Assembly: GCA_963749915.1 (NCBI GenBank)
Contig: CAVVOP010000008.1
Location: forward strand, 640,001 to 704,000
Origin: an uncultured cyanobacterium
GTDB lineage: Bacteria; Cyanobacteriota; Cyanobacteriia; Cyanobacteriales; Cyanobacteriaceae
Length of the DNA stretch: 64,000 nt
Reading direction: 5' to 3'
Shown: piece after piece, positions 31,483 through 59,599 of the stretch
Layout: each line of letters begins with the position of its first letter
How positions within the stretch are numbered: position 1 is the stretch's first letter
Program-made: the position numbers and the translations under genes
The notes under the pieces: model-generated
What the model was told of the DNA's origin: nothing
Databases searched by the model: none
Seen by the model: the letters and a program-made list of their open reading frames with translations, nothing else

Positions 31483-32244
31483 TTGTTTAATCCTCATTTT
31501 TTAATTAAATTAACGAATAAATTGAGCAATTACTTATTTGCGTCAAAACCAAAAAAGATTTTGTTTAATCATCTCCCAAAATGCGGAGGATCATCCCTTA
31601 ATACTTATCTAGGAACTCAGTATCCAGAAAATAAAATTTTTGCCATCGAAGGTTCAGATCCCCGTAAATCCGTTGATTTGTTTAAAACATTATCTCAAGA
31701 AGAAAGATATAGCTACGATCTGATCACAGGTCATAATGCGAATGAATTATTGGATTATGTTCACCCGGACTGCCTTAAAATAACCGTTTTCAGAGACCCC
31801 ATCCATCGCATTGTCTCCCACTATTACTACGCAAAAGATACCAAAGATCACTATTTACACTCAAAAATAAACGAGTTGAAATTAAACCTTGAACAATACG
31901 CAACCTTAAATTTAAGTGATGAACTTCGCAATTACTATACAACACATTTTTCCGGACTGACGATCAGTGATGCGGAAAAAAATCCCGAAGATTCAGTGAC
32001 GAAGGCACTAGAATTTGTTTTGGAACGATACAACCTTATGGGAGTTTTAGACGAATTTGAAACTTTTATTACAAAACTTAAGAATCAAGCTCAGTTTAAA
32101 GAGGAATATGAAAATCAGAGAGTCAACGTTACAAAAGATCGACCATCTATTAATAATATTTCACCATCTACCATCAGAAAACTTGAAGAAGTAAACTTCC
32201 TTGATGTGGCTTTCTACAAGAAAATCACAGAAATAATTTGCTGA
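31483..32244 (+). CDS. Sulfotransferase family protein
   Basis: HLPKCGGSS 5'-PSB motif and FRDPIHRIVSHYYY 3'-PB motif. Confidence 0.8.
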   Translation: MFNPHFLIKLTNKLSNYLFASKPKKILFNHLPKCGGSSLNTYLGTQYPENKIFAIEGSDPRKSVDLFKTLSQEERYSYDLITGHNANELLDYVHPDCLKITVFRDPIHRIVSHYYYAKDTKDHYLHSKINELKLNLEQYATLNLSDELRNYYTTHFSGLTISDAEKNPEDSVTKALEFVLERYNLMGVLDEFETFITKLKNQAQFKEEYENQRVNVTKDRPSINNISPSTIRKLEEVNFLDVAFYKKITEIIC

Positions 32245-47445: not shown

Positions 47446-50334
47446 ATGAGATTAATAATGGAATCACTAGAGATTAGTCCTAATTTTAGTTTTCTTAAGG
47501 TTGTCGATCTAGCAGAATTAGCTACTCTTGCTGAAAAATATTACAAATCAGATCCCAATATCTCTTTATTTAAGTGTCGTCAGTTCGTAGAAGTTTGTGC
47601 TAAATATGTTTCGGCTCAAATCGGCATTTATGAAGAAGTTAAAAATGAAAAACTAATCTACATTATCAATCAACTTCGCAAGAAAAAAGCCATTCAAGAT
47701 CGTATCTATTACTTATTGAACGATGCGAGAAATCTAGCTAATTCAGAAGTTTATTTAGATGCTCAACACTCTACCACTACTAACCCCGAAAAGAACAATA
47801 AGATTAACTCCAATATAGCTTTAAAATGTGTAAAAAAAATACATAAATTAGCAATTTGGTACCACAAAGCATTTTGTTCAGATAAAAATAAACCTTTTAA
47901 AGAACCTGAATATATTATCCCAATAGGTCTAGAAGATAAAATCAGAGAATTAGAAGCACGATTAATAAGTCAAAATGAACCTAAATTAATCAAAGAAATT
48001 GAAGAAGAAATTGAATATGTACAATTAAAAAAAGAAGAAGAAGAAAAAATCATGGCTCAATCTAACCATGATCTTGACGATCATCTTCAATCTAGTGATT
48101 TAGATGAAGAATTAACTCGTATCTTCCAAGAAACAACATTAAAACCCGAAGTTATAAAATCTAATTTAAGTAATGCAGCAAAAGCTGAAAATGACACGAT
48201 TTTAGGGGATGACAACATTATCCGAACTACTGAAATTAATAAATTAGCACAGGGATTAATTCTGAGACATCGTTACAAAATTATAGAAGAATTAAGTTCA
48301 GGAAGTTTTGGCACAACCTATATTGCCCATGACTTAGATAAACCCAACAAACCATTATGCGTAGTTAAACAATTTACTCCTAAACAATCTGATAGTGGCA
48401 CGTTTAGTAAAGCTCGATGTTTATTCAATCAAGAAGCTGAAATCTTACAAAAATTAGGGACTCATACTGAAGTCCCCTGTTTATTGGCTTTCTTTGAAGA
48501 TAATCATAATCTATTTTTAGTACAAGAGTATATTGAGGGATATATATTAAGAGAAGAATTAACTATACAATCGGGAGAAAAACAAGTGATTCAATTGTTA
48601 AAAGATATACTTAAACCATTGTCTTATGTACATCAAACTGAGATAGTTCACCGTGATATTAAACCCGAAAATTTGATTCGCCGTGCCATCGATGACAAGA
48701 TAGTGATTATTGATTTTGGAGCTGTTAAGCAAATATTAAAACAAAAGAATACAAAAGGTACTGTTATTGGTACAAAGGCTTATATGTCTCCAGAACAGTT
48801 CAAAGGACAGATTACTTATAGTTGTGATGTCTATGCAGTGGGAATAATAGCCATAGAAGCATTAACAGGCAGAAGAATGCCAGAAAATATTTATCCAAAA
48901 CAGTACTTAGCATCAATAAATTTTATCAGTGATGGATTCAAAGAAATATTATTGAATATGACGGCAATTAATTATGAAGACCGTTATAGTTCTGCTCAAG
49001 AAGTATTAAGAGCGATCGAGGAATGGGAGGAAAAAGAAAATGAAACACCGACAAAAATTTCCCAACCACTAACATCACAAGATAATTCAAATTTAATCAC
49101 AATTCCTGAACCTCGAGGAAGTATATCGGAACAACCATTACAATCTCCAGTATCAGGAGAAAAAACACCAAAAACCTTAATAGAGCAAATTAGATCAATA
49201 CCTTTAGCCTTCAAATTAGGGGGGGGGATTGTCGCTTTATTACTGTTAGGATTATTCATCAAATCAATTCCCTATTTAACTAAAACCAAACTTGCTCAAA
49301 CAGAATTAACCATCGGTACTCTCTGGACACCAGAATCATTGCAGGGATTAACTGAACATATTGAAGAAAACTCAGTACCCGCTAACTATTTTGATTTTCT
49401 CTCCGGCAAAAAAATAAAAGTATTAACTAATGGTAATAAGAGTATTCCCTATGGTGAAGCCCAAAAAAGAATAGAAGTTAAACAGTGGGATATTGCCTTC
49501 GCTAATTCTCCCATGCTTTCTATCTTTGCTAAAGAGCAAGGTTATACTCATATTGCTGGAATGTTTCCCAAAACTCCTAATTATCAAGCTGGTTTATTTG
49601 TCAAAAATAATAGTTCGATTCAATCATTAAATGATATTAAAACCTCAACTAGAGTGGCATTAGGAGGATTTTATTCGGCTTCTAGTTTCTATATGCCTGT
49701 TTATGATCTTTACGGTAAAACCATTACTGCTGATACGGGTAATAGAGGACAGGCCATCATTGAATTAGTTAGAGACGGTAAGACAGATGTCGGGGCTGCG
49801 GCAATTGGGGACTCCATTCGTAAAGATGATCCAGATTTTAGAATTATTCATGTTTCAAGGAATATACCTAGTTCTGGTGTTTATGCTTCTCCTGATTTAT
49901 CCGAATCTGACCAACAAAACATCAAAAAGTTAATGTTAACTGCTTCGGATGAAGTCCAAAAAAAAGCTAACTATGGAGATAGAGCTGAAGCTGATTTTAC
50001 TGAATTTAAGAAAATAGTTGAAAGAGTTGGAGAAATCTTAATCTGTACTGATTTTAATAAAAATCCTGTTACTTTAGCTTGTACTGGCAATATTGAGACT
50101 TTAGAAGGCAAAATCAATGGTGCCTCCATCGAAGGAAATAATGCCATTCTTAAACTATCCGCTAATAATCAAATCTATAATCTTTCTCTCTCTTTAAAAA
50201 TTACTCAAGAGTTATTTGATAGTGATAAATTGACTGATATACAAGGAAAATCAGTGATAGTCAAAACTAATCAAATTAATGGTAATAACGTCAAAATCAA
50301 TCAAACAAATCAACTTAAAGTGAAAAATAATTAA
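47446..50334 (+). CDS. Membrane Ser/Thr protein kinase with N-terminal DUF4145/HsdR-N-like domain and C-terminal PhnD-like substrate-binding domain
   Basis: Kinase motifs GSFG, VVKQ, HRDIKPEN, DFG, YMSPE, DVYAVG; TM helix LGGGIVALLLLGLF; C-terminal WDIAF..SP, SASSFYMPVYDL periplasmic-binding features; N-terminal NFSFL..LAELATLAEKY..DPN.SLFKCRQF.E. Confidence 0.85.
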   Translation: MRLIMESLEISPNFSFLKVVDLAELATLAEKYYKSDPNISLFKCRQFVEVCAKYVSAQIGIYEEVKNEKLIYIINQLRKKKAIQDRIYYLLNDARNLANSEVYLDAQHSTTTNPEKNNKINSNIALKCVKKIHKLAIWYHKAFCSDKNKPFKEPEYIIPIGLEDKIRELEARLISQNEPKLIKEIEEEIEYVQLKKEEEEKIMAQSNHDLDDHLQSSDLDEELTRIFQETTLKPEVIKSNLSNAAKAENDTILGDDNIIRTTEINKLAQGLILRHRYKIIEELSSGSFGTTYIAHDLDKPNKPLCVVKQFTPKQSDSGTFSKARCLFNQEAEILQKLGTHTEVPCLLAFFEDNHNLFLVQEYIEGYILREELTIQSGEKQVIQLLKDILKPLSYVHQTEIVHRDIKPENLIRRAIDDKIVIIDFGAVKQILKQKNTKGTVIGTKAYMSPEQFKGQITYSCDVYAVGIIAIEALTGRRMPENIYPKQYLASINFISDGFKEILLNMTAINYEDRYSSAQEVLRAIEEWEEKENETPTKISQPLTSQDNSNLITIPEPRGSISEQPLQSPVSGEKTPKTLIEQIRSIPLAFKLGGGIVALLLLGLFIKSIPYLTKTKLAQTELTIGTLWTPESLQGLTEHIEENSVPANYFDFLSGKKIKVLTNGNKSIPYGEAQKRIEVKQWDIAFANSPMLSIFAKEQGYTHIAGMFPKTPNYQAGLFVKNNSSIQSLNDIKTSTRVALGGFYSASSFYMPVYDLYGKTITADTGNRGQAIIELVRDGKTDVGAAAIGDSIRKDDPDFRIIHVSRNIPSSGVYASPDLSESDQQNIKKLMLTASDEVQKKANYGDRAEADFTEFKKIVERVGEILICTDFNKNPVTLACTGNIETLEGKINGASIEGNNAILKLSANNQIYNLSLSLKITQELFDSDKLTDIQGKSVIVKTNQINGNNVKINQTNQLKVKNN

Positions 50335-50421
50335 TTTAGCTATTTCCCCTGACGAAAAATGGATTTCTTTACTTATTGCTTATCGATCGAAATCATGCTA
50401 GCATTGCGGGGTTTAACCTCA

Positions 50422-50515
50422 GGTCTGTCAAGATGGTTTTGAGGGACTGGGAACGGATAATTTTGGATTTTGGAGGATTGTTTTATCCCTCATTTCAAAA
50501 TTGGCAGACCACTAG
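50422..50515. mobile_element. Small MITE-like element upstream of the sterol operon
   Basis: Imperfect inverted ends GGTCTGTCAA (50422-50431) / TTGGCAGACC(ACTAG) (50501-50515), inner TGAGGGA/TCCCTCA pair and a TTTTGGA heptamer. Confidence 0.55.
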
Positions 50516-50572
50516 ATGTTTTAGTCCTATTGAACAGTTAACTAAGAGAAAGTAACAGCAAGACCTAGAGAC

Positions 50573-51679
50573 ATGAATAAACTTATATATTCAATTACCC
50601 CAGTTGGTCTGGGTTATGCATCAATAATCTTTGTCGGCTTTGTGACTGTGATGTTTTTGGCTACAATCTTCTTGCCAGGGAAACAATATACAGGCTGTTT
50701 ACAACCAGACGGTAATCGCAAAACTTACAAACTTAATGGATTGCTGGTATTTATAGCAACTACCCTCATTGTAGCAGTACTCACCTTCAGATTCCACCTG
50801 ACACTCGCACCCCTAATTACCTATTTCTGGTCTTTGTTCATTGTTGCTAACCTATTTGCTTTTCTTTGGACTGGCATTTTATATGTAAAGACGCAAAGAA
50901 AACAGGCTGTTAGTAATCAACCACAACCGTTGGCTAAAATCTTTAGTAATTTATGGTTTGGCATGGAACTCAACCCAACTTGGCTGGGGGTTGATTTAAA
51001 AATGTTCGCCTACCAACCCTCTCTCATTAGTTTAGGACTAATAAATGCAGCATTTGCCTACGTGCAATCTGAAAAGTACGGGGAAATTACTCCACAAATG
51101 TTGATGTTCCAGGGGTTTTGGTGGCTGTACCTTGCCACTCACTATTACTATGAAGAATTCATGCTTTCGACCTGGGACATTATTGCTGAGAAATTGGGGT
51201 TCATGTTGATCTGGGGGGACTTAGTTTTGGTTCCTTTCTTTTACAGTATCATCGGCTGGTATTTAGTGGATGTAATTGAACCAATCCCAGTAGCTGGAGT
51301 AATTGCTATTAGCTTGCTTTACCTCGTGGGATTAACGATATTTCGGGGTGCTAATGCCCAAAAGCATCGCTTCAAGAAAAATTTTCAGGCAAGGATTTGG
51401 GGTCAGCCAGCTCAAACTTTAGAAGGAAAGCTTTTGGTGTCTGGTTGGTGGGGTATTGGTCGCAAGCTTAACTATACAGGTGAAATTTGTGTCTATTTTG
51501 CACTAGCATTAACCACCGGGTTTAACTCAATTATCCCCTACCTGCTACCTCTGTGGTTGTGCGTCCTCTTATCTCATAGGGCATGGCGTGACGAACAGCG
51601 TTGCCAAGCAAAGTATGGTAATCTTTGGAAGATTTACTGCACTAAAGTCCGATTTCGGATGCTACCCTTTGTTTATTAA
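50573..51679 (+). CDS. ERG4/ERG24-family sterol reductase (delta14 / delta7 / delta24(28) type)
   Basis: YKLNG, GMELNP, DLKMF, TWDIIAEKLGFMLIWGDL, ANAQKHRF, LLVSGWWGIGRKLNYTGE, HRAWRDEQRCQAKYG; multi-pass membrane protein. Confidence 0.9.
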   Translation: MNKLIYSITPVGLGYASIIFVGFVTVMFLATIFLPGKQYTGCLQPDGNRKTYKLNGLLVFIATTLIVAVLTFRFHLTLAPLITYFWSLFIVANLFAFLWTGILYVKTQRKQAVSNQPQPLAKIFSNLWFGMELNPTWLGVDLKMFAYQPSLISLGLINAAFAYVQSEKYGEITPQMLMFQGFWWLYLATHYYYEEFMLSTWDIIAEKLGFMLIWGDLVLVPFFYSIIGWYLVDVIEPIPVAGVIAISLLYLVGLTIFRGANAQKHRFKKNFQARIWGQPAQTLEGKLLVSGWWGIGRKLNYTGEICVYFALALTTGFNSIIPYLLPLWLCVLLSHRAWRDEQRCQAKYGNLWKIYCTKVRFRMLPFVY

Positions 51680-51708
51680 ACTTAAATTTTTGAAGATTAA
51701 TTTTAAAA

Positions 51709-53034
51709 ATGGTGAGAACACTTTCCCCTGATATAGTCGTGATTGGTGCAGGTCCAGTCGGTTGCGTGACTGCCATAGCTTGGGCTCATAGTGGGGCAAA
51801 AGTCATGTTGTTGGAGGCGCAAGCCCAAAAGAAAAAACGGCTGGCAGGAGAATGGTTGCACCCCCCTGGCGTGCAAGTCTTAGAGCGTTTGGGTCTTTTA
51901 ATGGCTTTTGAGCCAGTTAATTATGCGACAGGTCTTGGTTTTGTTGTCTTTACTGATGATGGTAGTGAGCCAATTCCACTTCATTACCCTAATCATGCAA
52001 TGGGGATTAGTTGTGAACATAATCACATCGTTTCTACACTGCAGAAAGCGGCCGCTGATTGTGAGGGGGTAAATTATATCCCTAGTGCTCGGGTGACGAA
52101 GATTCAGGGGGGGCAGTTAACCTTTAAAGACCTCAAAGGAGGAGAAAATTTTACTATCTCCAGCAAACTCATTGTGGGAGCAGATGGTCGTTCCTCAGCA
52201 GCTCGCAAAGCTCTGGGTATTCCCCATAAAGTCCAACCGGTTTCCTATATGGCGGGGGTGCTACTGGAAAATGTTGAGTTACCCTTTGAAGGCTTTGGTC
52301 ATTTGTTTTTAGGGGGACCAGGACCTATCACTGCATATCGCGTTAGTCACAATCAAGTCCGTATTTGCCTCGATGTGCCACTGGATTTTTCTAAAAAATC
52401 TGTTGATTTGTGGGATGTCTATAGTCCTATTCTACCGTCGGAATTGCTGGAGGCATTTCGCCAGACCTTAGAAAAAGGGGAAGTCTTGTGGGTGGCAAAC
52501 CAGTATAGTCCTCGCATTCACTACGGTTGTCAGAGTTTGGCACTGGTAGGCGATGCAACTGGATACTTCCATCCGATGACGGCAACAGGCATGACCATCG
52601 GTTTTATGGATGCAGAGTGTCTTTTGCACAGTAACAGTTTTAACAAGTACCAGAGTCAACGTAGTTGGGGAACCTATGTGCCAGAAATGCTCGCGACTAC
52701 TCTTTATGAGGTGTTTTGCCATGATGATGACAGTGCTGTAGCCATCCGCAGGGCCGTATATAAAATGTGGCGACAAGACCCAAAAGAATGCGTTCGCACC
52801 ATGCATTTACTATCCGGCGCTCAAACAAATCTCTGGCATTTTATCAGCTCATTTCTCAAAGCATTGGTGCTGGCTGTCGAATCAGTAATCCAGAAATATG
52901 GTTCTCAGAGGCAATGGCGACAGTTGATCCCAGCTTTGGGGGCTTTTGGTAAGTGGCTGCGATGGCCCATTGTTATTGCCTGGTCCCGTCTTCCCATCAT
53001 TAACATTTTTCTAAATCATGAACCAAGACATTGA
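51709..53034 (+). CDS. Squalene epoxidase / monooxygenase (FAD-dependent)
   Basis: VIGAGPVG Rossmann, GEWLHPPG (cf. GE.LQPGG), VGADGRSS, LVGDA..HPMTATGMT (cf. HPLTGGGMT). Directly upstream of and overlapping the cyclase. Confidence 0.85.
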   Translation: MVRTLSPDIVVIGAGPVGCVTAIAWAHSGAKVMLLEAQAQKKKRLAGEWLHPPGVQVLERLGLLMAFEPVNYATGLGFVVFTDDGSEPIPLHYPNHAMGISCEHNHIVSTLQKAAADCEGVNYIPSARVTKIQGGQLTFKDLKGGENFTISSKLIVGADGRSSAARKALGIPHKVQPVSYMAGVLLENVELPFEGFGHLFLGGPGPITAYRVSHNQVRICLDVPLDFSKKSVDLWDVYSPILPSELLEAFRQTLEKGEVLWVANQYSPRIHYGCQSLALVGDATGYFHPMTATGMTIGFMDAECLLHSNSFNKYQSQRSWGTYVPEMLATTLYEVFCHDDDSAVAIRRAVYKMWRQDPKECVRTMHLLSGAQTNLWHFISSFLKALVLAVESVIQKYGSQRQWRQLIPALGAFGKWLRWPIVIAWSRLPIINIFLNHEPRH

Positions 53035-55003
53035 ATTCACCGCCAACTCCACTACCACTCTTGAACGTGCCATTAGGTCTTTGATTTCCCGACAACAAGC
53101 CGACGGTTCTTGGGAGGGAGAGGTAGTGTGGTGTCCCCTGCTACCAGCCCAGTATGTGCTTATGTGTCACATTACTCAAACACCAGTTTCAACAGAACGC
53201 CGGCAGGCTATCCTACAGCAATTCAAGACAACTCGTCTGCCTTGTGGTTTGTGGGGATTGCATGATAAGTCCCAGCCTTACTTATTTGTCACAACCCTTG
53301 TCTATGTATCTGCCCGTCTCTTAGGTCTGCCCAAAGAAGACCCGCTTTTAGCTCAACCCCTAAAATTTATACGGGAACAGGGGGGTGTGGTCACCATTCC
53401 CACCTGGGGAAAATTCTGGTTAGCTATGATGAATCTTTACGATTGGCGTGGTGTTAATCCAGTATTGCCCGAAGTATGGCTGCTGCCAAAATGGATACCT
53501 GTTCATCCAGGAAATTTTTACTGTCACACGCGACTAATTTATCTGCCGATGGGCTTTATTTATGGGCGGAAGTTTCAGCTTCCCTTAACACCATTAATTG
53601 AAATGTTACGCTCCGAGTTGTATGTGGATGATTACCAGCAGGTTAACTTTAAGGCAGCACGGTTAATGTTAAGGCAAGAGGAAGTTTATAGTCCTCCCGG
53701 TGCACTCCTGAAGCTAATCTACAAATTAAGTGGTCTTTACGAACGATGGCATCATCAAGGTTGGCGACGAAAAGTGCTTGCTCAAATGATAGACCTGATC
53801 CGCTTTGAGTTACAGACAACTGATTATACGAGTCTGTCTCCCGTTAGTGGCTTACTAAACATGATCGCCCTTTGGCTGCACGACCCCAAGGACGCAGACT
53901 TGCACAGAGCATTAGAACGCTTTGAAGGGTGGATCTGGCAAGACGAACAAGCGGGAATTAGGGTTGTAGGGGCACGCAGTAGTACTTGGGACACTAGTTT
54001 TGCTATTCAAGCCTTACAAGCAGCCAGTTCTTATGAAGACGTTTCTGCCAGTCTTTTGAAAGGGCAGCAGTTTCTTGCCAGTCAACAGATTTGCCAAACC
54101 TTTGCTAATCTACAAATGTTTCCAGGAACTTCTCTAAACTATCGCATCGATCCCAAAGGAGGATTCTGCTTCGCTGGGGTTTGGCATGGGTGGCCCGTGA
54201 GTGACTGTACTGCTGAGGCACTCCTAGCATTATTAGATGCCCCACCTGAAGTAATTGCCAATTGTAATTTGCAGGATGCGGTGGAATTTATCCTCCGTTG
54301 TCAAAACGCCGATGGTGGTTTTGGCAGTTACGAGCGCCGCAAGATTGCCTCAACCCTGGAGTGGATGAACCCAGCCGAGATGTTTGCTAACTCAATGACC
54401 GAGCATTCCTATATCGAGTGTACAGCCTCTAGTCTCATGGCACTGAGGGAATTTTTGACTTATTACCCAGAAATAATGAGTGATAAAATTGACACTGCTA
54501 TTCAACGGGCTAGCTTATGGTTGCGACGACAGCAGGGGCCCGACGGCTCTTGGTTAGGTTTTTGGGGCGTGAATTTCATCTATGGCACCATGTTTGCCAT
54601 TCACGGCCTATTAGCAGCAACTAATACGACCAATGACCCGGCCATCCGCAAAGGGTGTCGTTGGTTAATAAGTAAACAAAGACCAGATGGGGGATGGGGA
54701 GAACATTTCCGGGGCTGTTTGACGGGTGAATATGTGGAACATACTGAAAGTCAAGTCACTCAAACTGCTTGGGCAATGATGGCCTTACTTAAAGCAGATG
54801 GGAACCATTGGCAGGAAATTACCAGAGGGGCAAGTTTTCTGAGAGATATGCAATTAGAAAATGGCGAATGGGCCGAACAAGATTGGAGTGGGTTGTTCTT
54901 CCAGACGGTATTGTTGGATTATAAGCTTTATCGCCTTTACTTTCCAGTATGGGCACTATCTTTGTATGAGTCGCAGCGGCAGAAAGACTTACTTTCTCCC
55001 TAG
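53018..55003 (+). CDS. osc: 2,3-oxidosqualene cyclase
   Basis: Catalytic VSDCTAE (OSC type, not the DXDD of squalene-hopene cyclase), IPTWGKFWLA, YCHTR, YIECT, several QW repeats (QxxDGSW, QNADGGF, QRPDGGWGE), WGVNFIYGT. Confidence 0.93.
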   Translation: MNQDIEFTANSTTTLERAIRSLISRQQADGSWEGEVVWCPLLPAQYVLMCHITQTPVSTERRQAILQQFKTTRLPCGLWGLHDKSQPYLFVTTLVYVSARLLGLPKEDPLLAQPLKFIREQGGVVTIPTWGKFWLAMMNLYDWRGVNPVLPEVWLLPKWIPVHPGNFYCHTRLIYLPMGFIYGRKFQLPLTPLIEMLRSELYVDDYQQVNFKAARLMLRQEEVYSPPGALLKLIYKLSGLYERWHHQGWRRKVLAQMIDLIRFELQTTDYTSLSPVSGLLNMIALWLHDPKDADLHRALERFEGWIWQDEQAGIRVVGARSSTWDTSFAIQALQAASSYEDVSASLLKGQQFLASQQICQTFANLQMFPGTSLNYRIDPKGGFCFAGVWHGWPVSDCTAEALLALLDAPPEVIANCNLQDAVEFILRCQNADGGFGSYERRKIASTLEWMNPAEMFANSMTEHSYIECTASSLMALREFLTYYPEIMSDKIDTAIQRASLWLRRQQGPDGSWLGFWGVNFIYGTMFAIHGLLAATNTTNDPAIRKGCRWLISKQRPDGGWGEHFRGCLTGEYVEHTESQVTQTAWAMMALLKADGNHWQEITRGASFLRDMQLENGEWAEQDWSGLFFQTVLLDYKLYRLYFPVWALSLYESQRQKDLLSP

Positions 55004-55038
55004 ATCGACAAACTTTTGAAAAAAATTTACGAATTGTT

Positions 55039-55635
55039 ATGAATTACATTTTTGATCCCAAAATACTACATAAAATTACCAAGAAAGCCATGGGACTACC
55101 TTACGAACAAATGTTTGAGACAGTCAGAATAGAGTTAGAGCAAAAATATCCAGGCAGAATTAACGACAAAATCCAATGGATGTTTAACAATGCTGGAGGC
55201 TGTATGTATAGCGTTGCCGTTCTTCATGCTTCTTTAAGAGAATATCTTCTGATCTTTGGCTCCCCTATCGGTACCCAAGGACATACAGGTCGGCATTTTA
55301 CACAAATCTACGATTTTGTCATAGACGGAGAACTTTGGTACTTTAAAGAAGATCGTCCTTTTGAACGCATAGTGCATAAATCTGGAGATAGATACCATTT
55401 GGGCAAATCCCAGAGTGAGGGGCTGTGTATTCCTGACCAAGCTTGGGTTCTGGAATATGCCAGGGGATTTATCCCTTCTATGCTTCCTTTTGGTTTGGCC
55501 GATTCTGTTTTTAGCACCTTAGACTGGAAAACAGTGGGTTATACCTTTGGCATCTATGGTAAGCTTTTACTTAAAGATCTCTGGAACAAAACTCACACCA
55601 ATTCTCGACCATCCGCGTCAAAGGAGATGCCATGA
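55039..55635 (+). CDS. ERG2 / sigma-1 receptor-like sterol C-8 isomerase
   Basis: WMFNNAGG.M, LHASLREYLLIFG, GHTGRH, WVLEYARG, PSMLPFGLAD..FSTLD. Confidence 0.9.
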   Translation: MNYIFDPKILHKITKKAMGLPYEQMFETVRIELEQKYPGRINDKIQWMFNNAGGCMYSVAVLHASLREYLLIFGSPIGTQGHTGRHFTQIYDFVIDGELWYFKEDRPFERIVHKSGDRYHLGKSQSEGLCIPDQAWVLEYARGFIPSMLPFGLADSVFSTLDWKTVGYTFGIYGKLLLKDLWNKTHTNSRPSASKEMP

Positions 55636-56621
55636 CTGCACGCTTTCCCTTTTCTGCTTTTCCCAATGGCTGGTTTCGAGTTGCCTACAGCGATGAACTA
55701 CCTCCTGGTGAGGTCAAACCTCTATATTACTTTGGTAAGGATTGGGTTCTTTTTCGCACAGAAGATGGTTTACCCCGAGTGTTCGATGCTCATTGTCCAC
55801 ACTTAGGAGCTCACCTTGGTTATGGGGGTCGAGTAGAAGGTGACAATATCCGCTGTCCTTTTCATGGCTGGTGTTTTGACCATGAGGGGCAATGCGTGCA
55901 AATTCCCCACAGCACCAAAGTACCGCCTAAAGCCCAAATCGGTTCTTTATCAGTTTGTGAGGTTAACGGGCTGATTATGGTTTACCACCACTCACAAGGA
56001 GAAGCACCCAGTTGGCAAATGCCCAAACTTCCGGAGTGGAATTCTCAAGATTGGATCCCCTTTCAACGACGAAGTTGGAAAATCCGCACCCATCCCCAGG
56101 AAATGGCTGAGAATGCCATGGATACAGCCCATATGCTCCATTTGCACGGACAATCATTCCGCACCATAGAAAAGGCTGAGTTTGATATCAACGGTACTAC
56201 CCTTGTGCATCGATTGAGCCCCCAATATCGGTTGTCCATCTTTGGAAAATTGGGAATTGGTGCGGAGGGTTTGGTAGAAATTAGCTGCTATGGCTTGGGC
56301 TGTCAGGTTAGTTATGCCCAGGTGAAAGCGATGATTGAGTTTCATAGTCTGACGTTATTTATGCTAACTCCCATTGATGGAGAGTTTCTCGATGTCCATG
56401 TATTAGTAAGTACAAAAAAGGTCTTCAATAAAGTCATTACCTATGCCCTAAGAAGTAAAAGTATGGCGGAAGTTAGTTACAATTTAGAGCAAGATATTCC
56501 GATTTGGGAAAACAAGGTTTATCGCAGTCAGCCGTTGCTCAGTGAAGCAGATGGACCAATTATGCAGTATCGGCACTGGGGGCAACAATTTTATGCTCAT
56601 GTACCTCTGAACAGTCAATAA
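55632..56621 (+). CDS. Rieske non-heme iron oxygenase (Neverland/DAF-36 / KshA-like sterol-modifying)
   Basis: FPNGWF, CPHLGAHL...CPFHGW [2Fe-2S] ligands, ENAMDTAHMLHLH iron site, QDIPIWENK. Confidence 0.85.
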   Translation: MTARFPFSAFPNGWFRVAYSDELPPGEVKPLYYFGKDWVLFRTEDGLPRVFDAHCPHLGAHLGYGGRVEGDNIRCPFHGWCFDHEGQCVQIPHSTKVPPKAQIGSLSVCEVNGLIMVYHHSQGEAPSWQMPKLPEWNSQDWIPFQRRSWKIRTHPQEMAENAMDTAHMLHLHGQSFRTIEKAEFDINGTTLVHRLSPQYRLSIFGKLGIGAEGLVEISCYGLGCQVSYAQVKAMIEFHSLTLFMLTPIDGEFLDVHVLVSTKKVFNKVITYALRSKSMAEVSYNLEQDIPIWENKVYRSQPLLSEADGPIMQYRHWGQQFYAHVPLNSQ

Positions 56622-56737
56622 TCTTTAGCATCGAGACTCAAGATCTATTTTTCAATTCTCCTCTTTTTTTCTGATTTTTACCTTAAGTATATATACTTAT
56701 TTTGTTTTCTTTTGTTTTAAACTGCGGAATATGGGTT

Positions 56738-58990
56738 TTAACTATTACTGATGCTAGAAACTTCGCTGACTCGGCGAATATTTAACACATCGCTTATGTT
56801 TTTTATTTGACTAATGACATATTGAAATTGGGCAGAATCTTGTACATCGATGGTCAAAGAAATTAACGCAGGTTTACCAAAATCCGTTTTAACACCAGCG
56901 TTACTTACGTTAATATTTTGATCCGTTAATCTTCCTAAAATATCTCGTAAGATACCAACACGATCTAAAGTTTCGATTACTATATCAACTGGGTAAGTGG
57001 CATTGCGACTTTTACCATCACAGGAATTCCATTTTACGGGAATTAAACGCTCTCCGGGGATAGTTGTTAAATTCGGGCAGTCAAGATGATGAATAGAGAT
57101 ACCACGAACATTGGTAACCACTCCGATGATATTTTCTCCGGGTAAGGCACGACAACATCCGGCTATATGATACATTAATCCTTCTACCCCACAAATGGGA
57201 TATTTATTGCTGTTGATTTCTTTATAGGTCTTTGTTGTACTCGTAGGCAAAGGACTTTCTCCTAAAGTTTGGGGTTTAACTTCAGGTTGTTGTTGTTTGT
57301 TTTCTTCTCGCAGACGGTTAATAATCTGCGTACAGGTCACTTCACCATAACCCAGTGAGGCTAATAAATCATCTACTTTTTGAAAATTGCATTTTTGTGC
57401 TACTTTTTGCATGGTATCCGACTTTAAGAGAGATTCTAAACCGTTTTTGCCCAATTCCTTCTCTAATAATTCTCTACCTCTGGCTATGTTTTCATCTCGA
57501 TGGGATCGCTTATACCATTGACGAATACGGTTTTTTGCACTGGGAGTTACCACGAAATTGAGCCAATCGAGACTAGGATGACTATTATTGCTAGTTACAA
57601 TTTCTACTATATCTCCATTTTTGATAGCCTGATCAAGAGGACACCATTTACCGTTAATTCTTGCTCCTTTCATGTGATTGCCTACCTCACTATGAATGCG
57701 ATAGGCAAAATCAACCACCGTTGCACCCCTGGTTAAAGGGATAACTTCGCCTTTGGGAGTAAAACCGTAAACATCATCATCGAATAAATTTTCCTTGAGA
57801 TTATCTACATATTCCTGTGCGTCTTTTAAGTCTTTTTGCCAATCCAATAATTGCCGTAACCACGTAAATTTTTCCTCATCGCTGGATAAATGAGTATTAC
57901 TAGAATTTCCCGCTTCTTTATATTTCCAATGGGCGGCAATACCATATTCAGCGATATAGTGCATTTCTAGGGTACGAATTTGTATTTCCAACGGACGCCC
58001 ATTAGAATTAACCACACTAGTATGCAGAGATTGATATAAATTAGGTTTCGGTAAACCGATATAGTCCTTAAATCTTCCCGGAATCGGGCGAAAAGCATCA
58101 TGAACCACTGCTAAAGCACGATAACATTCATCATTAGTATTAACAATAATTCTCACACCAGCCATATCATAAATTTGCTCAAACTCTTTATTTTGAAGCT
58201 CCATCTTATGATATATCCCGTATAGGTGCTTAGGTCTGCCTTTGACTTCTACAGGTTTAATATGCAGTTTTTCTAAGCGTTGGTTAATGATTTTAACAAC
58301 ATTTTCAATTCTTGCTTCTCTATCTTTGCGTCTTTCAGCAATTAATCCCTTAATGGTGGTATAGGCGATAGGATTAAGATATTTAAAAGATAAGTCTTCT
58401 AACTCCCATTTAAAATGCCACATACCGAGACGATTGGCTAGAGGGGCGAAAATTTCTTTGGTTTCTTCGGCAATTAACCTTTGTTTTTCGGGTGCTAAAA
58501 ACTCAAGGGTACGCATATTGTGCAATCTATCTGCCAATTTTACCACAATCACTCGAATATCTTGAGCCATGGCCACAAACATTCGTCGAAAATTCTCGGC
58601 TTGTCTTTCTGTTTTACTGGAAAAATTAAATTTCGATAACTTTGTTACTGCCTCTACTAATTGACGCACATTTGCACCGAATAAGGCTTCGATTTCATCG
58701 GGAGTAATATCAGTATCTTCGACGACATCATGTAAAAAACCTGCGGCAATCATTTCACTATCACCACCCAAATCCCGTAATAACTCGGCAACTGCTATGG
58801 GATGGGCGATATAAGGTTCACCGGATTTACGATATTGTCCTTCATGTAAAGAATAAGCGAATTGAAATGCCCTACATATTAGGTTATTATCGCGATCGTT
58901 TTGGTCGCCGATTAAACAATTATTTAACCAATTGGGAATATGTAATTTCTTGTCTGGTTTAATTTCAGGAATTAGGGTGGTTGTATTCAT
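56738..58990 (-). CDS. rel: Bifunctional (p)ppGpp synthetase/hydrolase (RelA/SpoT)
   Basis: HxGQxRKSGEPY, LHDVVED, KLADRLHNMRT, YQSLHT, EIQIRT, TGS and ACT domains. Confidence 0.96.
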   Translation of the reverse strand: MNTTTLIPEIKPDKKLHIPNWLNNCLIGDQNDRDNNLICRAFQFAYSLHEGQYRKSGEPYIAHPIAVAELLRDLGGDSEMIAAGFLHDVVEDTDITPDEIEALFGANVRQLVEAVTKLSKFNFSSKTERQAENFRRMFVAMAQDIRVIVVKLADRLHNMRTLEFLAPEKQRLIAEETKEIFAPLANRLGMWHFKWELEDLSFKYLNPIAYTTIKGLIAERRKDREARIENVVKIINQRLEKLHIKPVEVKGRPKHLYGIYHKMELQNKEFEQIYDMAGVRIIVNTNDECYRALAVVHDAFRPIPGRFKDYIGLPKPNLYQSLHTSVVNSNGRPLEIQIRTLEMHYIAEYGIAAHWKYKEAGNSSNTHLSSDEEKFTWLRQLLDWQKDLKDAQEYVDNLKENLFDDDVYGFTPKGEVIPLTRGATVVDFAYRIHSEVGNHMKGARINGKWCPLDQAIKNGDIVEIVTSNNSHPSLDWLNFVVTPSAKNRIRQWYKRSHRDENIARGRELLEKELGKNGLESLLKSDTMQKVAQKCNFQKVDDLLASLGYGEVTCTQIINRLREENKQQQPEVKPQTLGESPLPTSTTKTYKEINSNKYPICGVEGLMYHIAGCCRALPGENIIGVVTNVRGISIHHLDCPNLTTIPGERLIPVKWNSCDGKSRNATYPVDIVIETLDRVGILRDILGRLTDQNINVSNAGVKTDFGKPALISLTIDVQDSAQFQYVISQIKNISDVLNIRRVSEVSSISNS

Positions 58991-59230
58991 AATCGGGGAT
59001 AAAAAAATAGATAAATTTAGTATTATGAGTTATGATATTGGGCGGTTGTGATCCAGTAAAAAATTTTTAAAACTAAAATCATTCTCTCAAGGAAACCTTA
59101 GATTCTATTTCCATTGATAGTAAAACTGCCCCCACTGCGATTCTTTCTTTCATTTACGCTCACAGTTAGGGGGTTGATATTAGCACTAATTAGTTTCTAA
59201 TTTCTTAAATTCTAACTCAATTTAGCCCAA

Positions 59231-59599
59231 ATGTTACCAAAATCCTATCGACAAGAATTGTTAAGTTGGTTAGATTTGCTTAATAGTTTAGACTCATTAT
59301 TCTGTAACGACAAAAATAATTCTGCTGTTGTTAAAGACAAATGGCATCAAATTCAAAAGTATTTACAAGCAAAAATAATGACCCTTGATAGTGGTGACTT
59401 AGATATAAGTCAAAAATCGTTATTTCAATCGTGGCAGACGGAAACTTATCGTTATATTCGACTTTTACAAACCGATTTTTTATTTTATGAATCAGCTAAA
59501 CAAGCTAACACGAAACAATCTCGTTTTTTGATAATTAAACAACGCTTAAAGGGTGCTATCAATTTAACCGACAATTATTTATTAGTAACTGAAACCTAG
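59231..59599 (+). CDS. patD: PatD-like protein
   Basis: QSWQTE..RYIRLLQTD..F...AKQ..T...R motif; divergent from rel, as I recall for cyanobacterial patD. Confidence 0.65.
   Translation: MLPKSYRQELLSWLDLLNSLDSLFCNDKNNSAVVKDKWHQIQKYLQAKIMTLDSGDLDISQKSLFQSWQTETYRYIRLLQTDFLFYESAKQANTKQSRFLIIKQRLKGAINLTDNYLLVTET

Follow-up and report, generated by a model that had tools for sequence, protein, structure and literature searches.

A predicted bacterial-type sterol pathway, probably acquired from another cyanobacterium and now split between three sites in the genome of an uncultured cyanobacterium

Could a cyanobacterium whose relatives lack an oxidosqualene cyclase make a sterol, with which enzymes, and from where would these have come? 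The question is raised by five neighboring genes in a 64,000-nucleotide stretch (the window) of the genome of an uncultured cyanobacterium, corresponding to positions 640001 to 704000 of contig C8 in a 34-contig, 4.69-Mb assembly (estimated completeness, 100%; estimated contamination, 2.09%). Located ~690 kb into this 940-kb contig and all on one strand, the five genes almost certainly encode sterol synthesis, judging by their sequences:

50573-51679, plus strand: ERG4/ERG24-family sterol reductase, 368 amino acids (aa) (Pfam PF01222, 251 bits, 2e-74)
51709-53034, plus strand: squalene epoxidase (SQE), 441 aa (PF08491, 1.1e-28, plus FAD_binding_3)
53018-55003, plus strand: 2,3-oxidosqualene cyclase (OSC), predicted lanosterol synthase, 661 aa (SQHop_cyclase_N and SQHop_cyclase_C, 3.7e-55 and 8e-58)
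55039-55635, plus strand: ERG2/sigma-1-like sterol C-8 isomerase, 198 aa (PF04622 ERG2_Sigma1R, 200 bits, 3.5e-59)
55632-56621, plus strand: KshA-type Rieske non-haem iron oxygenase, 329 aa (Rieske, 6.8e-24; KshA_C, 6.4e-34)

We put the probability at roughly 0.8 that the window carries the opening half of a bacterial-type sterol pathway gained by horizontal transfer, the minimum product of which would be a sterol of the lathosterol type. A preliminary description of the locus had listed the same five gene families, all of which were borne out by Pfam, as well as five closely spaced genes with gaps of 29 bp and 35 bp, a 17-bp overlap and an ATGA overlap; these coordinates, gaps and overlaps were found exactly as claimed, the 17-bp overlap lying between SQE and OSC and the ATGA overlap between the ERG2-like and Rieske genes. 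None of the five open reading frames (ORFs) contains an internal stop and the DCTAE, GAGPVG, Rieske and iron-site motifs were all found, in agreement with its claim of intact frames and catalytic motifs. The SQE/OSC overlap was seen again, with 0 differences, in a contig from another study (sequencing run X2, 52778-53263) and is therefore not a frameshift peculiar to this assembly. Moreover, since the gene order is repeated at other cyanobacterial loci (see below), chance does not account for this row of five sterol-family genes. Between positions 50200 and 56900, we counted 6 promoter-like sites (12.3 expected) and 10 terminator-like sites (7.2 expected), numbers that are uninformative.

By its sequence, the cyclase is of the OSC type rather than the squalene-hopene cyclase (SHC) type. 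It carries the catalytic motif VxDCTAE, with DCTAE at residue 396 and aligned to human D455, and has no DxDD; it scored 464 bits against human lanosterol synthase (1W6K) versus 198 bits against SHC, passed the cutoff of TIGR01787 (539 bits; cutoff, 323) and failed that of the hopene-cyclase equivalog (286 bits; cutoff, 431), which leaves the original call of an OSC with a DCTAE motif standing. The residues at human positions 381, 449 and 453 are A, H and V (V394 aligning to V453), accompanied by the catalytic D. The same pattern was present in 16/16 cyanobacterial loci, including that of Calothrix sp. NIES-4105, and in 62 of the 63 other bacterial loci. Among bacterial OSCs, V453 goes with lanosterol and I453 with cycloartenol (Wei et al. 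2016, PMC4919349), and the OSC of Calothrix NIES-4105, which is 65% identical to that of the window and has identical specificity residues, was verified experimentally to yield lanosterol in Escherichia coli (PMC10202945). The window OSC is accordingly predicted to be a lanosterol synthase. As for the preceding enzyme, SQE scored 100.6 bits on PF08491 (cutoff, 20.1) and has the FAD-binding motif GAGPVG at residue 13. SQE and OSC are separate, overlapping ORFs both here and in the closest unnamed relatives. In several relatives the two are fused; fusions of ~1110 to 1150 aa are numerous, and many metagenome-assembled genomes (MAGs) from outside the cyanobacteria have fusions too. In Calothrix rhizosoleniae and Rivularia, the SQE and OSC matches lie in one frame (the Rivularia fusion having 1114 aa), and a single C. 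rhizosoleniae locus tag covers both activities in Supplementary Data 1 of Lee 2023 (PMC10202945).

Running the 19 ORFs of the Calothrix NIES-4105 cluster against this genome located further sterol genes outside the operon, on contig C27, and a family search located a second reductase on C8:

Contig C27: Bsr-like GGR-family flavoprotein (TIGR02032, 165 bits; 89% identity with its C. rhizosoleniae counterpart)
Contig C27: SdmB homolog (NCBIfam, 327 bits; 72% identical to Calothrix NIES-4105)
Contig C27: CYP51 (440 bits, full length, versus the PDB "Cytochrome P450 51" entries 7JJ1 and 6MCW)
Contig C27: SdmA homolog (NCBIfam, 407 bits; 76% identical to Calothrix NIES-4105)
C8:510451-511746: second ERG4/24 reductase, full length (431 aa), between an ISL3 transposase fragment and a glycogen phosphorylase gene

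The identity of the C27 CYP51 to its Calothrix NIES-4105 counterpart also falls within 72 to 76%, and its PDB matches are, we presume, methanotroph CYP51 enzymes. The sole candidate for a squalene synthase (SQS) is a 270-aa SQS-like gene on contig C22, which is 86 to 91% identical in 4/4 congeners and 80% identical in one family member; the gene is native, its divergence matching that of SpoT (85 to 92% in 5/5 relatives). The operon thus appears, on the basis of these homologies, to be about half of a sterol pathway: the preliminary description was right to read sterol-pathway genes in it, but what it presented as the sterol operon has its remainder on C27 and elsewhere on C8. Similarly, the label "eukaryote-like" fits insofar as these are sterol genes, while the set is of a bacterial type, with SdmAB for C-4 demethylation, a GGR-family protein for C-24 reduction and a KshA-like Rieske protein.

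On C27, the GGR-family gene is immediately preceded by a relic of 96 nucleotides that matches the 3' end of the second reductase gene with 94.8% identity and terminates at its stop codon, indicating that this reductase once stood at the head of the C27 locus. Immediately upstream of the sterol locus is a catalase-peroxidase gene (C27:128726-130921) with a GC content of 0.586 and a third-position GC content of 0.689 (99.8th to 99.9th percentile); it resembles an independent insertion of foreign DNA where the second reductase was lost.

In the proposed route, squalene would be supplied by the lineage's own short SQS, converted to 2,3-oxidosqualene by the operon SQE and cyclized to lanosterol by the OSC. 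Removal of the C-14 methyl group would fall to the C27 CYP51, followed by Delta14 reduction by the operon reductase, and both C-4 methyl groups would be removed by the C27 SdmAB pair. With the Delta8 bond then shifted to Delta7 by the ERG2-like enzyme and C-24 saturated by the Bsr-like enzyme, the route would be expected to yield at least a 4-desmethyl Delta7 sterol of the lathosterol type. This Delta7 sterol would undergo a ring desaturation or hydroxylation by the KshA-like Rieske protein, which is translationally coupled to the ERG2-like isomerase; another double bond may be reduced by the second ERG4/24 reductase. Two of these steps, namely, lanosterol formation by the OSC and complete C-4 demethylation by SdmAB, have been demonstrated by others with orthologs that are 65 to 76% identical (the Calothrix NIES-4105 SdmAB pair takes off both C-4 methyls in E. 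coli [PMC10202945]) and may be expected here by analogy; for the other steps, as well as for expression and the end product, we infer the above from the genes.

Individual enzymes fit their places in this scheme to varying degrees. The best PDB match of the operon reductase is a Delta14-sterol reductase (4QUV; 227 bits, residues 27 to 368 aligned to chain positions 84 to 427), and its orthologs, 77 to 85% identical in C. rhizosoleniae, Rivularia, a Nostoc MAG and one Hormoscilla MAG (loci L012, L013, L015 and L014), were tabulated as C-14 reductases on the basis of BLAST by Lee 2023 (PMC10202945). The ERG2-like protein aligned to the sigma-1 receptor with 140 bits, its residue 2 opposite chain position 35; the N-terminal membrane helix is missing and the first 40 residues are hydrophilic. 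Residues E139 and D155 are invariant among 13 orthologs, and we take this acidic pair to be equivalent to D126/E172 of the sigma-1 receptor; the Asp of an IYDFV motif is kept within the cyanobacterial orthologs.

Is this arrangement unique to the present genome? A scan of species-representative genomes gave 79 loci with OSC relatives, and sterol proteins were mapped onto the 16 cyanobacterial ones. Rivularia sp. MS3 (L013) and an uncultured Nostoc MAG (L015) each have ten genes as one contiguous cluster, in the order SQS, ERG4/24, SQE, OSC, ERG2, KshA-like Rieske, GGR/Bsr-like, SdmB, CYP51 and SdmA. C. rhizosoleniae SC01 (L012) has the same arrangement, with nine genes visible and the contig ending inside ERG4/24. 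The synteny search that had been called for therefore recovered the same gene order in other cyanobacteria, and the nine genes regarded here as acquired are shared with these three loci in the same order, including the overlap of ERG2 and Rieske genes. Across the three loci their identities are 66 to 90% (70 to 90% for the C. rhizosoleniae orthologs), and the linked SQS genes of Rivularia and Nostoc are 65 to 67% identical to the native SQS on C22. In the genome studied here, the cluster is split between the Rieske gene and the Bsr-like gene. Whereas the C. rhizosoleniae, Rivularia and Nostoc clusters are contiguous, often have SQE and OSC fused and bring their own SQS, the present genome has two loci, separate ORFs and a native SQS; its host also differs in being non-heterocystous, in having a 4.7-Mb genome and in carrying the second ERG4/24 reductase. 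The published C. rhizosoleniae gene numbering fits our mapped order: the C-14 reductase is _116820, SMO/OSC _116819, the C-8 isomerase _116818, SdmB _116813, CYP51 _116812 and SdmA _116811 (PMC10202945), and _116814 is a homolog of Bsr, a characterized GGR-family sterol C-24 reductase (Table S2, PMC12004948). Given its place in the cluster, we take the C. rhizosoleniae partner of the C27 Bsr-like gene to be this homolog.

The 21-kb cluster of Calothrix sp. NIES-4105 (Nat Commun 14:2904) contains orthologs of all nine acquired genes (52 to 76% identity) and, in addition, a truncated ERG4/24 gene (171 aa), two KshA-like Rieske genes, an EBP-like gene and a methyltransferase gene, for which the present genome has no good counterpart. 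The cholesterol route of the myxobacteria Enhygromyxa salina, Minicystis rosea and Sandaracinus amylolyticus has SQE, OSC, CYP51, the C-14 reductase, SdmAB, the C-8 isomerase and Bsr in common with the pathway described here; myxobacteria are tabulated with a C-5 desaturase and cyanobacteria without one (PMC10202945), and the Rieske hits beside OSC in the myxobacterial loci that we fetched are only 23 to 34% identical. With the methanotrophs (Methylococcus capsulatus and Methylomicrobium alcaliphilum), the pathway shares C-4 demethylation of the SdmA/SdmB type, and MaSR1 (4QUV) is the best match of both reductases, but the methanotroph SdmAB takes off one C-4 methyl, and neither a KshA-like Rieske protein nor Bsr is tabulated for these organisms (PMC10202945). 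The cluster type as such has already been published in cyanobacteria (Lee 2023, PMC10202945; Lee & Welander 2025, PMC12004948); new are the host lineage, with its evidence of transfer from one cyanobacterium to another, the breakup of the cluster, the second ERG4/24 reductase and the SHC variant described below.

Several cyanobacterial loci depart from the common order. The three Hormoscilla MAG loci (L014, L029 and L036; 3/3) share one deletion that begins at about residue 45 of the Rieske protein and reaches the 3' end of the Bsr-like gene, so that both genes are lost; the OSC match and the SdmB match of L029 are also each in two pieces. Amazonocrinis nigriterrae CENA67 (L020) and Nostoc sp. 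NIES-4103 (L045) have kept ERG2, Rieske, Bsr-like and SdmAB genes, and no CYP51 or ERG4/24 ortholog was found in either locus (P450s at 23 to 24% identity only), which suggests 14-methyl sterols or another route of C-14 demethylation. Filamentous relatives have two to four extra KshA-like Rieske paralogs (44 to 55% identical) and extra SdmB-like genes beside the cluster (L013, 437-3563; L015, 3-4750; L017, L019, L023 and L025), which suggests that sterol tailoring has diversified there.

How did the genes reach this genome? No OSC was found in any of 60 relatives (including 0/6 congeners and 0/19 genomes of the same family) or in 400 genomes drawn across the cyanobacterial phylum, in keeping with the rarity of cyanobacterial OSCs stated in the preliminary description. 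ERG2 was likewise found in 0/400 sampled cyanobacteria. The 60 relatives yielded no CYP51 ortholog (only two distant P450s, at 32 to 33% identity) and, for the ERG4/24 family, weak partial C-terminal hits of 19 to 33 bits; among its kin, the gene set is confined to this genome. Eight of the ten sterol genes have a GC content of 0.45 to 0.48, corresponding to approximately the 91st to 95th percentile of 1,631 long ORFs; the GC content of the flanking kinase, SpoT and Spherulin4 genes is typical, as is that of the native SQS and second reductase genes. In a quick maximum-likelihood tree of 42 OSC rows, with Shimodaira-Hasegawa-like approximate likelihood ratio test values as its only support measure, all 26 cyanobacterial rows (14 loci, 11 further proteins and the window) formed one clade (support, 100). 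Within it, the window OSC belonged to a subclade of 10 rows (99) that also included C. rhizosoleniae, Rivularia, the Nostoc MAG and Hormoscilla (Gomontiellaceae); two proteins with 85% and 81% identity were nearest to it. This placement conflicts with the organismal classification. Taken together, the absence of OSC from relatives, the raised GC content and the conflict between tree and taxonomy make horizontal transfer likely, and the sequence evidence favors transfer of the whole cluster from another cyanobacterium, followed by rearrangement. As for the recipient, HetR (PF03574), which most filamentous cyanobacteria carry, was not found in this complete genome (positive control, 2/2 heterocystous genomes), which indicates that the organism is not heterocystous; genome sizes in the family range from 2.1 to 4.8 Mb. 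These data fit a non-heterocystous, possibly unicellular host. They do not show morphology, however, and the word "unicellular" in the preliminary description stays unproven.

A number of observations weigh against the reading proposed here. The cluster is broken into three sites, with a 96-nucleotide relic of the second reductase, and this fragmentation suggests that the pathway has been rearranged and is possibly partly out of use. Some scores fall short: the OSC reached 718.4 bits on NCBIfam TIGR03463 (cutoff, 851), and SdmA (407 bits) and SdmB (327 bits) are both under the curated NCBIfam cutoff of 600. The operon reductase is without approximately the first 80 residues of 4QUV. No clean empty site was seen in three congeners in the DNA past the 3' end of SpoT, the gene that adjoins the operon and is itself 85 to 92% identical in 5/5 relatives (87 to 92% in congeners); we attribute this to the scrambled gene order around SpoT among the congeners. 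Neither operon junction was bridged among the short-read contigs listed (see below). Finally, sterol production by Calothrix NIES-4105 itself was reported as inconclusive because it ceased during the study (PMC10202945).

The alternative that survives best agrees with the proposed route up to the Delta7 sterol and holds that the final product is a tailored, conjugated or hydroxylated sterol-derived specialized metabolite rather than bulk membrane sterol, with the Rieske protein as a hydroxylase (acting, for instance, on a tertiary carbon in the manner of KshA) instead of a desaturase; we regard it as possible, if clearly the less likely account. Much here depends on the Rieske protein, which has the CxH...CxxH cluster ligands, the mononuclear iron site DxxHxxxxH and a KshA_C domain. 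We considered and rejected its identification as SdmA, for it scored 74.4 bits on the SdmA model (cutoff, 600) with the Rieske domain alone aligned. Its best structural relatives are hydroxylases, namely, KshA (PDB 4QDC; 142 bits, full length) and SxtT/SxtDIOX (76 to 81 bits), which speaks for the specialized metabolite. With KshA, the 3-ketosteroid 9-alpha-hydroxylase oxygenase (4QDC, 2ZYL), it shares the full-length alignment, the Rieske ligands, the iron site and the KshA_C domain; KshA, however, acts on 3-ketosteroids in steroid catabolism, whereas the Rieske gene of the window sits inside a biosynthetic operon. Neverland and DAF-36, the sterol 7-desaturases of animals and ciliates, are presumably relatives as well, and some cyanobacterial paralogs bear the automatic NCBI name "cholesterol 7-desaturase." Orthologs with at least 57% identity were found in nine loci, in eight of which the gene lies directly 3' of ERG2, several times with a stop/start overlap; in the ninth, Scytonema PCC 10023, one gene stands between the two. 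This linkage to ERG2 (9/9 loci) fits a core ring-modification step at least equally well, and the single Rieske copy in this genome, together with the lack of a glycosyltransferase or acyltransferase gene in either locus, also argues against a specialized product. Paralogs with 40 to 53% identity occur in 5/400 cyanobacteria, all without OSC; the wider Rieske family is thus not sterol specific, a point in favor of the specialized metabolite, and the sterol link would be confined to the orthologous subgroup. Further points in favor of the specialized metabolite are the two to four extra KshA-like copies of the relatives, a pattern typical of tailoring enzymes, and the case of Calothrix, in which sterols were visible only after acid hydrolysis and 25-hydroxycholesterol was detected (PMC10202945). 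A complex prediction for the Rieske and ERG2-like proteins scored 0.00, which counts neither for nor against binding. From sequence comparison, we tentatively lean toward a hydroxylase for the Rieske protein, at less than even odds; a C-5 or other ring desaturase is a somewhat weaker candidate, and some other activity is about as likely as the desaturase.

Less likely, and in our view rather doubtful, is a complete cholesterol-type route combined with a switch from hopanoids to sterols. On this account, the product of ERG2 would pass straight to the Rieske protein, which would be the missing, nonhomologous ring-B (C-5) desaturase of cyanobacteria; the Delta7 bond would then be taken off by the second ERG4/24 reductase, Bsr would saturate C-24, and SHC would be altered. 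The second reductase is 31% identical to the operon reductase, and ten named or top-ranked relatives that we checked are 52 to 67% identical to the second reductase and 28 to 33% to the operon reductase. Several proteins of this group, including those of Minicystis, Byssovorax and Polyangia, are named "7-dehydrocholesterol reductase" by JGI or NCBI (the Minicystis and Byssovorax proteins, named as such or as sterol reductases, being 53 to 55% identical). Just 1 of the 34 ERG4/24 regions in the fetched loci matched the second type better, and among the 11 other cyanobacterial genomes with sterol clusters, Scytonema PCC 10023 alone shares this reductase. There, its gene stands between ERG2 and the Rieske gene, and this adjacency is the best support for the Rieske protein as a ring-B desaturase feeding a Delta7 reductase. 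On the other hand, the second-type reductase is the sole ERG4/24-family hit in Scytonema even though CYP51 is present, so that it probably has to perform Delta14 reduction. Moreover, on the solved Delta14 reductases the second reductase scored 257 and 174 bits, higher than the operon reductase (227 and 118 bits), from which it follows that sequence alone cannot separate the two activities. Both observations weaken a strict DHCR7 reading of the second reductase. Neither a C-5 desaturase nor a 7-dehydroreductase is listed for cyanobacteria in the tables of Lee 2023 and of Lee & Welander 2025, which also have no column or entry for the KshA-like Rieske protein (PMC10202945, PMC12004948), and no paper describing either a DHCR7-type gene or a KshA-like Rieske step for sterol synthesis in cyanobacteria turned up in a literature search that did not extend to subscription journals or to supplements on bioRxiv. 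Another candidate for the C-5 desaturase, an FA_hydroxylase of the "sterol desaturase family" on contig C2 (C2:12148-12963), was kept as a weak ERG3-type alternative, poorly linked to the pathway. It is foreign (0/20 relatives), lies beside a phage-type integrase and transposases, has an ortholog in 1 of the 11 sterol-cluster cyanobacteria and bears generic names only in the protein atlas; it is 70% identical to a gene from a MAG of Cyanosarcina radialis, an OSC-carrying, non-heterocystous organism, and no such gene was found next to DHCR7-like genes in five myxobacterial genomes.

The hopanoid side of the same account concerns the native cyclase:

C8:448690-450639, minus strand: native SHC (hopene-cyclase equivalog, 895 bits; cutoff, 431)

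Its catalytic acid motif reads D-I-D-Y-S-S, owing to a single GAT-to-TAT substitution in an otherwise intact gene; DxDD is kept in all 14 relatives compared (6 congeners, 4 of the same family and 4 of the same order). The aspartates of DxDD are essential in the Alicyclobacillus SHC, and SHCs are able to accept oxidosqualene. The change to DxDY may have disabled hopanoid synthesis or re-tuned the enzyme to oxidosqualene, which is more easily protonated and would come from the acquired SQE. When SHC and OSC are aligned pairwise, this Tyr occupies the position of the Cys in the DCTAE motif of the OSC. We tried relaxed selection as an explanation and rejected it: pairwise dN/dS (the ratio of nonsynonymous to synonymous substitution rates) was 0.093 with this genome (n = 6) and 0.104 among the congeners (n = 15), so that prolonged decay is not indicated. 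The SHC shares its 90% cluster with no other protein, and the D-to-Y base is known from this assembly alone. About 3 kb from the SHC gene, near an IS630 transposase, a cytochrome P450 gene is split into two ORFs by stops within the matching region (C8:444486-445866).

That the acquired genes are silent or decaying and at present yield no lipid seems improbable to us. The scattering of an ancestral single cluster over three sites and the relic on C27 would suit it, as would the insertion sequence elements and the ISL3 fragment beside the relocated pieces, the lack of RNA runs among the seven public runs that contain the stretch and the earlier loss of the Rieske and Bsr genes in the Hormoscilla relatives (3/3 loci). 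Yet all nine acquired genes and the second reductase are full length with intact catalytic motifs, and a second study yielded metagenome contigs with almost identical copies.

The assembly itself was checked against those seven runs, which are DNA runs from four studies labeled as sediment metagenome. Four of them were aligned to positions 48500 to 59500. In three (X2 to X4, all from one study), the flanks and the operon were covered by short contigs with at least 99% identity and similarly low depth; in the fourth (X1, 37% read), the flanks only were covered. The contigs end at 50422 to 50516 and at 56629 to 56740. At the downstream break lies a T-rich segment, three short copies of which occur elsewhere, and we ascribe the upstream break to a repeat:

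50422-50515, no strand: copy of a repeat resembling a miniature inverted-repeat transposable element, ~95 nucleotides, with terminal inverted repeats, ending 58 bp before the first gene

This repeat, which does not belong to the pathway, gave 62 blastn hits genome-wide, including itself, with 85 to 99% identity and a per-base coverage of 24 to 49 copies. It is very improbable that the assembler brought the operon into the contig, be it as a contaminant or through a mis-join at repeats: both junctions lie at repeats where short-read contigs end and were unbridged among the pieces listed, the GC content of the operon genes is atypical and the estimated contamination is 2.09%, but the operon lies deep in the 940-kb contig between native genes, its complementary genes sit in native stretches of C27 and at 510 kb on C8, beyond the reach of one mis-join, flanks and operon are alike in depth and identity (at least 99%) in runs X2 to X4, and no joint omitting the operon was seen in the aligned runs. 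Outside the operon, the window is ordinary chromosome, with genes for GltB, CarB, ClpB, ResB, UbiD and a sigma factor; a Sulfotransfer_2 family gene (window positions 31483 to 32244), 19 kb off the operon, showed no sign of a link to sterols.

Sterol synthesis in cyanobacteria is an old and disputed question, one that bears on the reading of steranes as markers of eukaryotes, and the best-studied example of this cluster type, that of Calothrix NIES-4105, is without firm lipid evidence (PMC10202945). The present locus would mean that distant cyanobacterial lineages can exchange the whole sterol toolkit of the bacterial type, here with a non-heterocystous host of small genome as the recipient. 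It also offers the ERG2-linked Rieske protein and the second ERG4/24 reductase as concrete candidates for unassigned sterol steps. If the substitution in SHC is real, the very genome that gained an epoxidase and an OSC also altered the catalytic acid of its hopene cyclase, and the DxDY change would then be a natural experiment on the interplay of sterols and hopanoids in one cell.

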